Assembly: GCA_000004695.1 (NCBI GenBank)
Contig: CM000151.3
Coordinates: 7,968,001 to 8,032,000 of the forward strand
DNA length: 64,000 nt
Direction of reading: 5' to 3'
Source of the DNA: Dictyostelium discoideum
Taxonomy: Eukaryota
Positions 42,617 through 52,888 of the stretch are shown here, one piece after another. Each line of letters starts with the position of its first letter. Within the stretch, counting starts at the first letter, position 1. The notes beneath the pieces were generated by a model that was given only the letters and a program-made list of their open reading frames with translations, searched no databases and had not been told where the DNA came from. The position numbers and the translations under genes are program-made.

Positions 42617-44183
42617 CTACAAAGCCATATTTTTTATTCCACCTTCAATTTGAGAAGCAGTACAAATTTGTTTGGTAAAGAAATTTTGGTGTTTATGTTG
42701 GTGTTGATATTGTAATTGTTCTTGTTGTAGCTGAAATTGCATTTTTTGAATTTTAAATTGTTCGAGTTGGATTTGATATTCTTTCTCTGATTCATCAAAT
42801 TCATTATTATTATTATCATTATTATTATTATGTTGTTCTAAATATTGTTGTTTTTGTTGATGTAACATTTGTTGTTTTTCTTGTTGTTGTTGAGGTTGTT
42901 GTTTCAATTCTATAAAATTTGGTTGTTGCATTTTTTGTTGTAATTGGTTTTGTCTTAATTTTTGTTTTTCTTTTTGAATGATTAAAACTTTTTCTTTTTC
43001 AGCCAATAAATTTTTTAAGGTTTCAATTTCATTTTCAAAGTCATCAATTTCTATGACACCATATTTAATCAATGGATGTTCTAATAATTGTTCAGCAGAA
43101 GGTCTTACGGAAGGATCAGGATGAATCATTGATTTAATTAATTGCCAAAATTCTGTTGAGAAATCATTCTTATTATCATCGTATATTGAATCTTCCTTTT
43201 CAAATGATAGTATACCATTTCTAATTGAGTCCCATTCCATGCCAGACTTTGGTAATGGTTTACATCTTGCCAATTCATATAAGGTACAACCCAATGAAAA
43301 GATATCACTTTTTTTCAAAGCAGACATATCGTCGTGTAATAATTCTCTTGATAAGTATCTACTATCACCTTCTGAATAGATTTTTGTATTGGTTGCTTCA
43401 TTTAATAAACCCAAATCACCAATTTTAAATGTTATACTATTAAAATTAATTTTATTACCATCAATTATTAAATAATTATTTTGATTATTATTATTTTGAT
43501 TATCTACATTATTATTATTATTATTATTACAATTGTTATTATTTACACTATTTGTTGTTGTTATAAAGTTATCAAGATCATTTTCAGTTGTTTTAATTTT
43601 ACTTTTGAAATAACTATCACTACCATTACTACTATTATTAATGGAGCAAGTATTGTTATTATTAGTGATGATTTGATTTTGATTACATTTATAAATTATA
43701 TATATATTTTCAGGTTTAATATCTAAATGAACTAAACCCAAAGAATGAATATAAACAATACCGGTAAGGATTTGTTTTGCCAATAAGAGTAAATTTGATT
43801 CGGATTGTTTAATATGTTCAGTTACCCATTTATAAATATTACCACCATTACAATGTTCCATTTGAATGAATATATGACTATCTTCTTCCCAAGCATTAAA
43901 ATATCTAACGATATTGGTATGATCTTTAATTGCAGATAAACCATAAACTTCCCTCAATACTATATCACGATCTTTTTGACCTTTTAATGGTTTTTTGGTT
44001 TTCTTTATTGCATATAGACATCCATCAATTCTATGTCTAACCTTATAAACATGACCAAAACTACCCTCACCAATTAAATCCAATTCTTGAAAAGTATGTT
44101 TATATAATGAAAATTTAGTTATTAAATTATTATCAATATTTTGTGAATTATTATTATTATTATTACAGGTATCGTCATTATTA

Positions 44184-44223
<40 letters not shown>

Positions 44224-44853
44224 CATTATTATTATTACTGGCATTATTATTATTGTTATTATTATTTACAAGTTGAAATGAAGGACATGGTTTATTCAAT
44301 GATTGCAATCTACCCTCTTCTGTAAAAGGATTAACATTTGCAATTAGGGATGATATAGAATTTGGACCATTGTTATTGTTATTGTTATTATTTACATTAT
44401 TATTATTAGCATTATTATTATTGTTATTATTTACATTTGAAGTCATTGAAGTTGACCTTTTTCTATTTGTTCTTTCTTCAGCCAATCTTATAAAAACTGG
44501 TTCAAATTTTGGAGAGGAATAATTATTTCTTTTTAATGATGGTGTTGGAGGTGGTGATGGTGTTGGTGACATTGAGAAAGAGTTTTCATTGAATGCCCTT
44601 TGATCGGGTCTTACTCTTTTTACCTCTGTTGATGGAAAGGTATTTCCTTTGTTATAACTACCATTCGATAGGAATCTACTATGATTTCCAGTAATATTAT
44701 TTATATTATGTCCATTCATCATTGAACCATTTGCTGACCATGATACTGGTGATGTTGGTAATGATGATGAAAATATTTGATCCTCTTCATTATTATTATT
44801 ATTATTATAATTATTATTGATATTATTGATATTATTATTATTGATATTATTGA

Positions 44854-44893
<40 letters not shown>

Positions 44894-45018
44894 TAAATTA
44901 TTATATATTCTATTATTATTTATTGGTCTTATATTCATACTATTTGTTGAACTATTATTAATAAATGATAAAGGTGTAAATGATGGAACTTTAAATTCAT
45001 TTGTTTGTTGTGATTGTG

Positions 45019-45049
<31 letters not shown>

Positions 45050-45203
45050 AGAGGATGGAGATGAATATAAAATTGGACTTGAAGGAAACATATTTGTTTT
45101 AGTTGATGATAGAGATGCTGAAGCTGGATAAATTGGTTGGTCGTCATTATCATCATGAAATAGTCTTCTGCCTTTTCTTAAATGATGATGATGGCTATTA
45201 TTA

Positions 45204-45265
<62 letters not shown>

Positions 45266-45613
45266 GCTACCACTAATTGGTATACTATTACTATTATTTA
45301 AATGATGCACTATATTATTATTGGTATTATTATTATTATTGTTATTAGTTGGAGAAGAATCACAGTCACTTTGTGTTGGAGAGGATGATTGTTGTTGTTG
45401 TTGTTGTTTTTGATCTTCACAATTTGAAAGTTCACTTAAAAGTAGTGTATTGAATGAATTTTGTTGATCCTTTGATTCTTCATAAGATGACATATGTATA
45501 AACTCTCGATTTTGATCAAAATCATCATCATCGTCATCATCGTCATAAGAGAAAAGTGTGGTTCTTTTCTTGGTGATATATTTTTTTTTTTCTGATTGAG
45601 ATGGAAAATCCAT
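42617..45613 (-). CDS. Wee1-family tyrosine kinase (Wee1/Myt1-like), 998 aa. It is a single exon with long poly-Asn and poly-Gln tracts N-terminal to the catalytic domain, and a C-terminal Gln-rich coiled region.
   Basis: Catalytic domain 'FQELDLIGEGSFGHVYKVRHRIDGCLYAIKKTKKPLKGQKDRDIVLREVYGLSAIKDHTNIVRYFNAWEEDSHIFIQMEHCNGGNIYKW...GLVHLDIKPENIYI...FKIGDLGLLNEATNTKIYSEGDSRYLSRELLHDDMSALKKSDIFSLGCTLYELARCKPLPKSGMEWDSIRNGILSF...LIKSMIHPDPSVRPSAEQLLEHPLI'. The 'EGDSR(F/Y)L(A/S)(N/R)E(V/L)L', 'LPRNGDQWHEIRQG'-like and 'MIHPDP..RPSA' motifs are diagnostic for Wee1 rather than other kinases. Confidence 0.88.
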
Positions 45614-45953
45614 TTTTCTCTCTATTTTTTTTATTTATTATTGTTGATTATTATTTTTATTTTTTTTTTTTTAAAAAAAAAAAAAACTTATATTAATTAT
45701 TTTATTTTATTTTATTTTATTTTTTTTATTTTTATTTTTTTTATTTTTATTTTTATTTTTTTTATTTTTATTTTTATTTTTATTTTTATTTTTAAAATTA
45801 ATAGGATTTTATTTTAATTTTTTATTAAAATAAAATTAAAAAACCCGAAAAAAAAAAAAAATTAAAAAAATTAAAAAATTTAAAAAAAAAAAAAAAAATT
45901 GTTAAAGTTGGAAGAAAAAAAATTTGATTATAACTTGTGTTTGAAGAAGAAAG

Positions 45954-46353: not shown

Positions 46354-46445
<92 letters not shown>

Positions 46446-46490
46446 TAATAATAAAAATAATAATAAAAATAATAATTAAAATATAACCAT

Positions 46491-46504
46491 ATTTGGCGCC
46501 AAAT
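46491..46504. promoter_or_regulatory. Perfect 14-bp palindrome ATTTGGCGCCAAAT, matching a head-to-head E2F-type site (TTTSGCGC overlapping its inverted copy, as in the mammalian DHFR promoter TTTCGCGCCAAA). It lies about 880 bp upstream of the wee1-family kinase ATG and sits on a small G/C-containing island in otherwise pure A/T DNA.
   Basis: Sequence read directly. Only two GGCGCC sites exist in the 64 kb window, and both lie in this palindromic context in 5' flanks. Confidence 0.45.
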
Positions 46505-46616
46505 AATAGATATTACATACTTAATGGAAAACGAAGAGAATTATTTGTGTAAATTTTCATAAAATAAAAAAAAAAAAAAAAAAAAAAAATTAAAACCCAA
46601 TTAATAGTAAATAAAG

Positions 46617-46651
<35 letters not shown>

Positions 46652-47184
46652 TTTAAATAACCCAATTAATAATAAAAAAAAAAAAAAAAAATAAAAAAAG
46701 AAAAGAAAAAAAAGAAAAAAATTATGATTCCATTGGATGTTTAGTGTGTGTGTGTGATTTTTTTTATTTTTTTTTTTTTATTTTTTATTATTTTTTTTAT
46801 TTTAACTCCATCATGTTCGTGCGTGTAGATATTGCGATTATTGGTAATAACAATCACTACTACACTAATAACAATACCAGCTGTTTAATTGAGTTTTTAA
46901 ATTAAAAAAAAAAGGAAAAAAAAAAAAAAAATTGAAAATTTGCAACTTTCGCTTTATATTTAGGGATTTTTTTTTTAACATCAATTTTTTTTTTTCTGAT
47001 TAGGTATGAAAATAATATCTTTAATAAAACAATTTTATTTTTATTTTTTATTTTTTTTATTTTTTTAATTTCCCACACAAAAGAATAAATGCTTCCCACT
47101 GTCCCCTCAACCAAAATTTTAATTTCCCATCACTTTCAAATAAAAAAAATAAAAAAAATTAAAATGATTGTTTTTTTAAATTTC

Positions 47185-47548: not shown

Positions 47549-47591
47549 AGCTAATTAAATAAAACAAATAAAAAAATTAATTTTTTTTTTT

Positions 47592-47668
47592 ACACTTTTT
47601 TATTGAAGTTGCATAAAGTTTTTTTTTTTACACTTTTTTATTGAAGTTGCATAAAGTTTTTTTTTTTT
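47592..47668. repeat. Tandem duplication of a 38-bp unit (tacacttttttattgaagttgcataaagttttttttttt x2), immediately 3' of the membrane-protein gene (minus strand).
   Basis: Read directly. Confidence 0.7.
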
Positions 47669-47732
47669 TATTTTTTTATTATTTTTATTTTTTTATTTTT
47701 TATTTTTTTATTTTTTTTTTTTATTATTTTTT

Positions 47733-50119
47733 TTAATTAACCTTTAATTTATTTTTGTAAAAAATAAAAGCAGCAATTAATAAAACAAAAGCTAAGAAGG
47801 AACCAACAATTATCAATGCTAATTTAAGTTTTGACATTGATGGTGATGGATGAGAAGTTATTGGATAATCTGAAACATAAATAAAGAATTTTGATAATGT
47901 TGCAGTATTTGTAGAAATAACTGATGATAATAAATTATTATTCATTGAACCTGTATCGATACTACCGCCACCATAACTACTACTACTACTAGCACTGTTA
48001 CTACTACTACTACTACTACTAGAACCACCACCACTATTTGGATTATTTGAAGATGGAGTTATTAAAGATATTTCAGTATATAATCTTTTTGCAATAAAAT
48101 ATTGATCGGTAATCATTGAAATTTGAGTTGAATTAAACCAAACTGGTTGAGTACCAGCAATTTGTTCTTTTGATAATACATATTCATTTTTCATTGATGT
48201 ATTAAATAATCTATAAAAATTAATATATTCACTTGATAAACTCCATGTAACTGGATTACTAATTTTTAACTATTATTTATTATTATTATTTATTATTATT
48301 ATTAGTAAAAATATTATATATAATATTATTATTATTTGTTTTTAAAAAAAAGGTTTAAATACATTACATTTGGATTATTTAACCAATATTTAAAATTAAA
48401 ATTTGGAGTTGGATTATTTACAGCAAAGAAACAATCTAAATTGAATTTAAAAGATGGTGAAGAGTTTTTAGTGAATGTGAAACAATGAGATTGAGAGAGA
48501 ATGAAATTATCACCTGAACAATTTGGTTTTGGTGATACTAAATTTAATTCACAAATGATTGGTGTTTGTTTATTACATAGCTTTCCCATATAATCCATTG
48601 GACATTCACAAGAATAACTTGGTAAATCTCTTGAACAATTTAAAGATGCTGATCCAGTCACTTTGTAAGAGATTGAACAATTACTATTCTTATTATTACA
48701 AATTAAACTGATATCTATAATTGGTTCAACTGATGATGAACATGGATAATTTTGAACAATACAATCACCATTTGCAATTGATTGATTATATTGTTTATAT
48801 TTATTTGTTGGTACTACCACACCATCACAAACTAATCTTTCATTTGTACATTGAAATCCAAACATATCAATCTTATCTCCAAATTGTGTATTACCATCAC
48901 ATACTAAATCATCAATTTTACAATCACTCAAATATTCTTTATCACATTGAAATTTAATTGTATTACACTGATTTAATCCATATAATGATTTAAAATCATA
49001 AATTTTAATAAAACTAAATGAATTTGGACAATAAATCTAAAATAAAATAAAAAAAAGAGTAAAGGGGGAGGAGGAAAGAGCGAAAGAGCGAAAGGGGAGG
49101 GAAAGAGGGGAAGAGGAAGGGGGAAGAGGGGAAGAGTGGAAGGTTAGAAATATAAAATATATTTTTTTATTTATTATTATTATTTTAAAAAAAAATAACT
49201 TACAGAATTAATTTGACAAGTATCATAATTAAAAGTTGCATTATAAGGAGTTGAAGTTGTAATTGTTATATTTTGACCATTACATTTCATTTCATTAATA
49301 TAACAAACTTGACCTTGACAAGTATTTGTCAAAGTTGGAGTAGTTACTAAAACACCAGAATTACAAATTGAAGCAATGTTTGAACCATAAAGTTTACTAT
49401 CGATACTATTAATATTATTATCATCATCATTATTATTATTAATTGAACTTTTTAAAAGATTATTTGATTTTTGTTGTAATTGCTCTTTATTATTTTCAAA
49501 CCATTCTTCTAAATCCTCAGTGATTGGATGTTTACCCAACTCTTTACCAATTAATTGATTTAATTTATTTTCATCAGCCGATAAGAAATTTCTATTGATT
49601 TTATTATTGTTATTGTTATTGCTATTACTATTAAATGTTTTGAATTGGTGGTTTGCCTTATTACCATATCTAGCTTGTTTCTTTTCTAACTGTTTTAATT
49701 GTTGTTGTGCAATTATTGAATTTGAAGGCGACAATAACGGTGATGGTGTATAATGCTCATAATAATAATTTTCATCATGTATTTCGTTATCACTACTATC
49801 ACCATTATCATTATTTAACTTTTTCTTTTTATTTAATTCTCTTTTTGATTTTAATTGATTTTTAAAATTACCATTCTTTAAAGATTCAATGAATTCACCA
49901 AATTGTTGAATTGAGTTACTAATATCACTGAAATGGTCATTATGATAAAATAATCTGTTACCCATTTGTTCAAATAATGATGGTGGTGCTTTGTTACTAC
50001 TAAAACTATTAAATCCACCAACACCACCATTTGCTAAATTATTTTTATCCATATCTAAATTTGTATCTTCTCTACTATTACTATATGAATCTGCTATTCC
50101 ATTATGGTATGATTTTTTA

Positions 50120-50582: not shown

Positions 50583-51251
50583 AATTATTTCAGACTTAAA
50601 AACACACACAAGCACAAAAACACACAATAAAAATAATAAATTAATAGAAAATAATAGATTATTTATAAATACAACTATACAAAATAATCAAATTACGATT
50701 ATATCAAAAACAAACAATTCGTGTAAATAAAAGTGAAAAGGAATTTTTTTTTGTTAAAAAAAAAATAAAAAAAAAAAAAAAAAAAATAAAAAAAATATAA
50801 AATTAAAATAAAAAAATAAAAAATAAAAAAAAATCATTTGCAACCTTGTATGCGCCAAAAAAAAAAAAAATCAAAATTTAATTATTTTTGTCCATGCAAT
50901 GTCAACAACCTACCACCATTTTCTCTCAAATTATTATTATTTTTTTTTATTTTGAAAATGATTTTATTTTTAAAAAAGGAGAATGAGTTAAATCCAATCA
51001 TTTGCCTAAATACAGTAAGAGTGGATATTTTTTAAAAAAAAAAAAAAAAAAAAAAAATTGAAAAATAAAAATCAAATAAAAACATTTTTTTGTTAATTTT
51101 TTTTTTTATTAAAACAATATCTTTTCTTTTTTTTTTTATATATAATTATTAATTTTTTTTTTAATTACTTTAACAAAAAACTAATGATTTTGGTGACAGG
51201 ATTTTATAATTACTATAATGGCTTGTTCTTTAATAGATAATTATTTGAATG

Positions 51252-51781: not shown

Positions 51782-52888
51782 ATGGAAATTGATATTGAAA
51801 AATTACCAATTATTGATATTTCATCTTTTCAAAATAATGAAAATGATAAAAATCAAGTTGCCAAAGAAATTAATAAAGCATGTAAAGAGTATGGATTTTT
51901 TTATATAAAGAATCATGGAGTTGATCAAGAATTAATTGAAAATTTACAAAATGTAATTAAAAAATTCTTTTCTTTGCCACTTGAAATCAAAATGAAATGG
52001 AAAATGGGACTTACCAATAGAGAATGGCTCGGATTCTTCAAAGTCGGTCAAGAAATTACTTATGGTCAAGTCGATTGGAAAGAAGGTTGCTATTACTCCT
52101 CAGAGATGGATGGTGATATTAATACAATCCATAATGTTCCATTATACCCAACCGCTGAACAAGAGGAACAATATGAGATCCAAGGTTTTAAAAGCACAAT
52201 TCATACCTATATCGAAAAGTTAACTCATTTATCTCAACAAATAATTGAAGCAATTTCATTAAGTTTAAATCTTCCTCAAGATTATTTCTTCAAGAATTAC
52301 ACATATGATCCATTCATTCTAATGGGACTACTTCATTATCCATCATTTCATCATCAAGAACAAGAAGAAGAGCAAGAAGACGATGAAAGTAATAATGGAG
52401 GAAAAAAATCACCAAATCCTGATGAATCAAAGAAACCAGAAGTTGAAAAATTTGGAACTGGACAACATACTGATTGGGGTTTATTAACTGTACTTTATCA
52501 AGATGATGTCGGTGGTTTGCAAGTTAAATCTAAGAATTCTGAAGAGTATATCGATGCACCACCAATTCCAGGTACTTTTATTTGCAACATTGGTGATATG
52601 TTGGATAAAATGACTGGTGGTTATTATCTTTCAAATCTTCATCGTGTAAAGTATAATAAAAGTGGTCGTGATCGTTTCTCAATTCCATTCTTTTTAGACC
52701 CATCTCTTAATTCAATTCCAAAATTAATTCCAAACTATGATCAACTAAGCCAATTTGCTGATAAACCAGAAAGATGGGATAAACAAAATATTCATGAATT
52801 TGATGGTACCTATGGTCAATATTTTATTAAAAAAATTGGTCGTGTTTTTCCAGATTATGTTTATAAAAAAAGTGGTGAATTAGTTTAA
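51782..52888 (+). CDS. 2-oxoglutarate/Fe(II)-dependent dioxygenase (isopenicillin-N-synthase-like / DIOX_N + 2OG-FeII_Oxy), about 368 aa. The real start is the ATG at 51782 (MEIDIEKLPIIDIS...), not the TTG of the track ORF at 51749.
   Basis: N-terminal 'LPIIDISSF...NQVAKEINKACKEYGFFYIKNHGVDQELIENLQNVIKKFFSLPLEIKMK' is the DIOX_N pattern. C-terminal 'FGTGQHTDWGLLTVLYQDDVGGLQVKSKNSEEYIDAPPIPGTFICNIGDMLDKMTGGYYLSNLHRVKYNKSGRDRFSIPFF' has the HxD...H facial triad and RxS of 2OG oxygenases. Confidence 0.85.
   Translation: MEIDIEKLPIIDISSFQNNENDKNQVAKEINKACKEYGFFYIKNHGVDQELIENLQNVIKKFFSLPLEIKMKWKMGLTNREWLGFFKVGQEITYGQVDWKEGCYYSSEMDGDINTIHNVPLYPTAEQEEQYEIQGFKSTIHTYIEKLTHLSQQIIEAISLSLNLPQDYFFKNYTYDPFILMGLLHYPSFHHQEQEEEQEDDESNNGGKKSPNPDESKKPEVEKFGTGQHTDWGLLTVLYQDDVGGLQVKSKNSEEYIDAPPIPGTFICNIGDMLDKMTGGYYLSNLHRVKYNKSGRDRFSIPFFLDPSLNSIPKLIPNYDQLSQFADKPERWDKQNIHEFDGTYGQYFIKKIGRVFPDYVYKKSGELV

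Follow-up and report, generated by a model that had tools for sequence, protein, structure and literature searches.

We find that the 14-nt palindrome ATTTGGCGCCAAAT, which lies 878 bp 5' of the ATG of a Wee1-family kinase gene on chromosome 2 of Dictyostelium discoideum, is a non-random, partly conserved match to an E2F binding site. We propose that it may well be, with chances that we put about even, a genuine double site for the one E2F/DP heterodimer of Dictyostelium in the upstream control region of this gene. The coordinates of the site and of the features discussed below are collected in Table 1.

The window, by which we mean the whole 64-kb stretch of DNA that was analysed, has a G+C content of 23% and holds seven hexamers made of G and C only and eight GCGC tetramers. 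An earlier note made from the sequence of this stretch had pointed to a perfect palindrome on a lone G/C island. The symmetry is indeed exact over all 14 nt, and to call the site a lone island is fair, the G+C fraction around it being 0.08. Its two TTTSGCGC half-sites (46492-46499 and 46496-46503) are perfect on both strands, and the site as a whole is an exact fit to TTTSGCGCSAAA, the SELEX-type palindromic E2F consensus, which is far above chance in DNA so rich in A and T. The E2F-type reading given in the note is well supported, and the palindrome is a probable E2F/DP double site.

The hexamer GGCGCC occurs twice in the 64 kb (at 355 and at 46495), against 0.05 occurrences expected from 100 dinucleotide-preserving shuffles of the window, none of which contained two or more. 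As had been claimed, the only other GGCGCC has the same context, both copies being embedded in TTTGGCGCCAA, and it too is found in a 5' flank. The E2F consensus TTTSGCGC matches the window four times at three loci (352; 46492 together with 46496; 50852), all of them intergenic, where 0.14 matches are expected and 0 of 100 shuffles reach four; the DNA surveyed for the motif was that of the window plus some 120 kb from related loci. Within the low-GC non-coding DNA of the window, TTTGGCGC accounts for three of the four GCGC. The similarity between the flanks of the two GGCGCC sites ends at the 11-mer TTTGGCGCCAA; as the sequences are unlike beyond it, the two are independent sites and not copies of a repeat.

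Table 1. Positions in the window of the E2F-type sites and of the genes and elements beside them
Feature	Position	Strand	Remarks
E2F-type palindrome ATTTGGCGCCAAAT	46491..46504	none	two overlapping inverted TTTGGCGC E2F-consensus half-sites
Conserved non-coding block TTTATGAAAATTTACACAAATAATTCTCTTCGTTTTCCATTAAGTATGT (minus-strand sense)	46515..46563	minus	read along wee1, 10 nt before the palindrome
T24 run	46566..46589	minus (wee1 strand)	immediately 5' to the block above; ~60 nt from the palindrome
Wee1-family protein kinase ORF, 998 aa, single ORF	42617..45613	minus	ATG at 45613
Second site TTTGGCGCCAA	352..362	none	one perfect TTTGGCGC; ATTGGCGC on the opposite strand
SAP-domain gene, first 53 codons	1..159	minus	cut at the window edge; ATG 159-157
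Third TTTGGCGC, non-palindromic	50852..50859	minus	divergent spacer between a 760-aa membrane-protein gene and aco

The Wee1-family gene and the RblA regulon

The kinase ORF downstream of the palindrome matches the Pfam Pkinase family at E = 2e-47, its domain being split by an Asn-rich insert. That it belongs to the wee1 family, as the earlier note had it, is borne out by matches to solved structures, in which human WEE1 scores E = 4e-62, WEE2 3e-52 and MYT1 ~1e-39 and the next families follow at ~1e-29; the database matches of the ORF carry the name Wee1-like. The gene may be DDB_G0277539 of dictyBase. The distance of ~880 bp that had been given for the palindrome agrees with the 878 bp measured to the ATG. 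The next gene upstream encodes a secreted or membrane protein in three exons and has its 3' end at 47733; since it is on the same strand as wee1, wee1 has the only annotated promoter in the 2.1-kb spacer. Just 3' of the stop codon of this neighbour, a 38-bp unit TTTTTTTTTTTACACTTTTTTATTGAAGTTGCATAAAG is repeated 2.6 times (47581-47680), and an (AAT)41 microsatellite (46354-46476) stands between wee1 and the palindrome. The window also has recognisable genes for RICTOR/piaA, cct6, a PI4-kinase and the V-ATPase B subunit, as well as two homeobox genes. At 51782-52885 it encodes a 2-oxoglutarate oxygenase with 100% identity to DDB_G0277497 (aco) of strain AX4, on chromosome 2, and over 21 kb it agrees to 99.3% with the DNA of another D. 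discoideum strain.

Dictyostelium has one E2F (e2f, DDB_G0284129), one DP (tfdp2, DDB_G0276799) and RblA, and its genome contains three wee kinases (PMC3386910). The RRXYD motif with which E2F and DP read GCGC is invariant in eukaryotes (PMC4862756). Table S2 of Strasser et al. 2012 comprises, according to its authors, every gene altered at least 2-fold in the rblA disruptant (PMC3386910). The gene sheet of this table, which is complete, includes two wee kinases, DDB_G0291133 and DDB_G0291842. Both are presumably on another chromosome, to go by the ranges of their IDs. There is no third wee entry in Table S2, and therefore no dependence on RblA is reported for the wee kinase of the window, either in growing cells or in those late in development. 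Within the range DDB_G02772xx-02776xx the table holds only SMYD3, SAP, amtA and DDB_G0277693. The regulation of this wee1 by Rb/E2F, which the earlier note had expected, is accordingly unsupported, the gene being missing from the sole relevant published set, in which the threshold is at least 2-fold. The same study reports that lin9 and lin54 are present in Dictyostelium and RblA-repressed, and its sole remark on a motif concerns 'a consensus E2F element' in one Tdd-5 transposon (PMC3386910); that remark apart, we found no E2F motif analysis for Dictyostelium in the literature searched, which likewise yielded no EMSA or ChIP record of E2F/DP binding.

The second site, by comparison, stands beside a gene that is very probably of the RblA set. 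It lies 193 bp 5' of the ATG of the SAP-domain gene at the left edge of the window, and its sequence is unchanged in another D. discoideum strain (L006). The full gene, recovered from that strain (L006, 12504-13713), encodes 366 aa, with one intron, an acidic tail and a SAP domain (PF02037) at E = 2e-9. As SAP-domain genes are, we assume, rare in Dictyostelium, and as the ID is near that of the neighbouring aco (DDB_G0277497), the left-edge gene is very probably DDB_G0277405, an identity that we infer from these two points. Exactly two SAP-domain genes are among those repressed by RblA, one of them DDB_G0277405, which is repressed 4.7-fold in growth and 14-fold in development and has its maximum in late G2 (PMC3386910). 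Comparing the motif with genes derepressed in rblA-null cells, a check that had been suggested for the palindrome, gave a divided answer: the SAP gene with the second site is very probably in the set, at these two values, and the chromosome-2 wee1 is absent from it. At the SAP gene the second site also overlaps a CCAAT pentamer (TTTTGGCGCCAATG).

A further case comes from D. firmibasis, where synteny is broken and rad21 adjoins aco: here TTTGGCGC is found 168 bp 5' of the rad21 ATG (L004, 9156-9163), and in D. discoideum rad21 (DDB_G0276977) is RblA-repressed 3.6- and 19.9-fold (PMC3386910). Besides the wee1 palindrome, the window and the related loci hold four intergenic TTTGGCGC loci, two of which are less than 200 bp from the ATG of an RblA-repressed gene, whereas RblA targets are a small share of all genes. 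The TTTGGCGC motif is associated with RblA-repressed genes. The third TTTGGCGC of the window, at 50852, is kept neither in D. citrinum nor in D. dimigraforme, and neither of the genes that flank it is in the RblA table; an unconserved copy with no known RblA target beside it means that the 8-mer alone is no proof of function.

Conservation of the wee1 spacer in other dictyostelids

Orthologous spacers were reached by way of the neighbouring aco gene, as low-complexity sequence defeated direct searches, a full-length wee1 query being swamped by poly-N/Q words. Querying a protein collection with the kinase domain returned no close dictyostelid wee1 orthologue. The collection includes the neighbours aco and cct6 and is without the wee1 (42617-45613), homeobox (1118-2662) and SAP proteins, and Asn/Gln-rich low-complexity proteins appear to be under-represented in it. 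D. citrinum and D. dimigraforme are syntenic with D. discoideum for vatB, wee1, the membrane-protein gene and aco, and the locus is single-copy. At aco, synteny is broken in D. firmibasis, D. purpureum and P. violaceum, and the spacers compared by way of aco were those of D. citrinum and D. dimigraforme.

The palindrome is intact in D. citrinum, as part of a block of 20 nt, TATTTGGCGCCAAATAATAG, that is identical in the two species and lies ~760 bp 5' of the wee1 ATG of D. citrinum. Some 150 of the 2119 bases of the spacer (~7%) lie in non-trivial 11-mers shared with this species and the other ~93% is unalignable; calculated from the lengths of the shared blocks, the chance that a given 14-mer falls fully inside them is ~1.3%. 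By aco identity, 84% in each case, D. dimigraforme and D. citrinum are equally close to D. discoideum. D. dimigraforme has lost the palindrome and kept the conserved block next to it. Its 1.9-kb wee1 spacer has no GCGC, GGCG or CGCC anywhere, and there is a T run at the position of the palindrome.

In the more distant Heterostelium album the wee1 orthologue is recognised by 72% identity in the kinase N-lobe and by the same split-kinase architecture, and TTTGGCGCCAAAA is present 1.17 kb 5' of its ATG; the upstream 3 kb, which is free of ORFs, holds no other GCGC. A block search of H. album against the wee1 upstream region found nothing convincing in common besides the palindrome, and no palindromic site was found elsewhere in ~90 kb of other dictyostelid loci. 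The chance of finding such a site at the H. album gene is probably a few percent, a rough estimate that does not draw on a genome-wide density. An annotated patatin-domain gene model in this H. album locus (L007, 1-5876) looks over-extended: it takes in ~3 kb, the palindromic E2F-type site among them, where no ORF exceeds ~117 aa. In D. purpureum, a wee-family paralogue carries TTTCCCGC near -720 and TTTGGCGC near -1160.

For a compact genome, 878 bp from the ATG is far, and the copies at RblA targets are at -168 and -193. Because the gene is absent from Table S2, the palindrome is lost in D. dimigraforme and this distance is so long, we regard the link of the palindrome to wee1 regulation as only partly supported.

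The best-conserved part of the wee1 spacer is the 49-nt block at 46515-46563 (TTTATGAAAATTTACAC...TTTTCCATTAAGTATGT, ending CCATTAAGTATGT), which is kept in D. discoideum, D. citrinum and D. dimigraforme and which may be a start-site-proximal element, a distal promoter element or a leader element. Core promoters of Dictyostelium have a long oligo-dT before the transcription start and then a block that is not AT-rich. The T24 run and the conserved block are compatible with a nearby start, though not evidence of one. E2F sites are usually close to the transcription start, typically within ~100 bp of it; if a transcript starts at the conserved block, the palindrome would be ~60 nt downstream of the start, in the usual place of an E2F site. 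Oligo-dT runs are also found closer to the wee1 ATG, at about 45950, and could equally mark the main wee1 start.

Two other uses of the block were considered and rejected. Read as a coding first exon it has an ATG followed by the splice-donor-like AAGTATGT, but a 4-nt indel in D. citrinum breaks the frame and the exon would end in TAA. The upstream element of small-RNA genes is [AT]CCCA[CT]AA, which the nearby ACCCAATT motifs do not fit, and these are not kept in D. dimigraforme. A tRNA scan of the window found none, and an Rfam search, of the window at gathering thresholds and of the spacer at E <= 1, gave only a chance-level PreQ1 match 450 bp from the palindrome. When both strands of the conserved blocks were folded, the z scores beside the palindrome were -0.6 to +0.9, which makes no case for a structured RNA.

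Further upstream, at 46800-46900, folding of the minus strand is a little more favourable than that of shuffled sequence (z = -1.8). Exact blocks in common with D. dimigraforme are found at 46820-46833 (TGCGTGTAGATATT) and 46863-46885 (CACTAATAACAATACCAGCTGTT), in a relatively G+C-rich patch that, on the plus strand, is downstream of a T-rich run. A 12-mer ACCCAATTAATA, which contains CCAAT, is present twice (46587-46602 and 46655-46675), the copies being about 70 bp apart and upstream of the conserved block in wee1 orientation; D. citrinum keeps the first only and D. dimigraforme neither.

Other explanations of the palindrome

If E2F/DP does bind here, its target could be something other than the main wee1 transcript, namely an unannotated transcript, for instance a non-coding RNA, starting from the conserved block, or a distal wee1 promoter used at a stage that was not sampled. 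The spacer holds several conserved non-coding blocks, the order of T24 and block resembles a core promoter some 60 nt from the palindrome, no RblA effect on wee1 is reported, and the main wee1 start could be at the oligo-dT runs near 45950, all of which suit such a target. On the other hand, no gene is called at the conserved block in three annotated genomes, its short ORF is not conserved in frame, and neither an RNA-family match nor a structure signal was obtained. In addition, H. album too has its site 5' of wee1, even if the palindrome is all that the two regions have in common. We consider this explanation rather unlikely.

It is a little harder still to hold that the palindrome is non-functional or weakly selected, a G/C sequence that was born by chance or slippage and has persisted in some lineages, and we regard this as unlikely. 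D. dimigraforme, which lost the palindrome and kept the adjoining block, speaks for neutrality, as do the absence of wee1 from the RblA list and the unconserved third site at 50852, which shows that such 8-mers come and go. Yet GGCGCC is expected 0.05 times and the full 14-mer is far less likely; the exact 20-nt block of D. citrinum stands inside a spacer that is otherwise largely unalignable; a palindromic site recurs upstream of the H. album orthologue; and at two of the four other intergenic TTTGGCGC loci the ATG of a gene repressed by RblA is less than 200 bp away.

Homodimers typically bind sites with perfect dyad symmetry, and a different dimeric protein could read TTGGCGCCAA as a palindrome in place of E2F/DP. 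We think this improbable: no Dictyostelium factor with such a specificity was found in the literature searched, the motif is linked to RblA-repressed genes, and the non-palindromic TTTGGCGC at rad21 and at the wee paralogue fits an E2F half-site and not a strict reader of palindromes. That the site belongs to a mobile element, a repeat family, or a tRNA or small RNA gene can be dismissed as very improbable even in a repeat-rich region with (AAT)41 and homopolymer runs nearby, given the lack of a tRNA and of any Rfam match near the site and the folding z scores of about 0; an origin from a repeat or mobile element is ruled out by the sharing of the 11-mer core alone between the GGCGCC sites and by the single-copy locus, syntenic in D. 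citrinum and D. dimigraforme.

A proposed model for E2F/DP at wee1 and its wider meaning

Were the palindrome a double site for the one E2F/DP heterodimer of Dictyostelium, as we propose, the GCGC at its centre would be read by the winged-helix RRXYD motifs of E2F and DP, and the T/A runs to either side would let the dimer bind in either orientation. With RblA bound to E2F, the promoter would stay repressed for the greater part of the long G2. Once RblA is inactivated in late G2, E2F/DP would set off a transcription pulse in step with those of cdk1, rad21, the SAP gene and the other wee kinases. The palindrome would probably be near a distal transcription start, with the T24 run and the conserved block just upstream; alternatively, it could be an enhancer 0.9 kb from the ATG.

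The mammalian DHFR promoter has overlapping inverted E2F sites, TTTCGCGCCAAA, at the transcription start, and both their binding and their function are proven. Like them, the Dictyostelium palindrome has two TTTSGCGC half-sites on opposite strands with a common central GCGC, the core that is read by the RRXYD helices (PMC4862756); unlike them, it has S = G in both half-sites and stands at a distance of 878 bp from the ATG. Close parallels are the promoters repressed by RblA in the same organism or its close relatives, those of the SAP gene (DDB_G0277405) and rad21 (DDB_G0276977), which have TTTGGCGC(C) in a tandem 5' flank, and the RblA targets named in the published study include the Wee family (PMC3386910). 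In these two genes, however, a distance of 170-190 bp separates the motif from the ATG and loss of RblA raises the mRNA 4- to 20-fold, whereas wee1 is unlisted and its motif is 4-5 times further away.

In plants, E2F sites of the form TTTSSCGS are found in cell-cycle promoters, and WEE1 is reported as an E2F target in Arabidopsis. The consensus is the same, and there too E2F drives a CDK-inhibitory kinase with S- and M-phase genes; the lineage is another one, though, and the sites themselves are not orthologous. Cell-cycle control in Dictyostelium has been described as resembling that of plants (PMC3386910). Animal G2/M promoters with CDE/CHR elements (DREAM/LINC) are similar in the Rb-family-dependent repression of mitotic regulators, but the palindrome is a full E2F consensus and not a degenerate CDE, and no CHR (TTYGAA) is seen by eye at the required 4-nt spacing from the G/C core in the bases inspected.

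A bolder view, which we hold to be doubtful, is that a palindromic E2F site has been kept ~0.8-1.2 kb 5' of wee1 in both Heterostelium and Dictyostelium, dictyostelid genera that are only distantly related, and marks a distal promoter that is driven by E2F and independent of RblA, or else a long leader with a small upstream ORF. If this were true, the cell-cycle network would have a branch in which E2F/DP works without the Rb orthologue, and D. dimigraforme would be a natural variant that has lost the site.

E2F sites, including palindromic ones such as that of DHFR, are textbook matter, the RblA/E2F/DP axis of Dictyostelium is already published, and a specialist would expect to find an E2F site 5' of a cell-cycle kinase gene. 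So far, expression changes alone define the RblA regulon of Dictyostelium, and the literature searched contains no map of E2F cis-elements for this organism. The near-palindromic site of the SAP gene is usable as a positive control for direct E2F targets, and the perfect palindrome provides a test case at the one wee kinase that has no reported RblA dependence. Should the motif (TTTGGCGC / TTTGGCGCCAAA) turn out to be enriched genome-wide, direct and indirect RblA targets could be separated, and such an enrichment would tell whether the third wee kinase joins the late-G2 transcription pulse.
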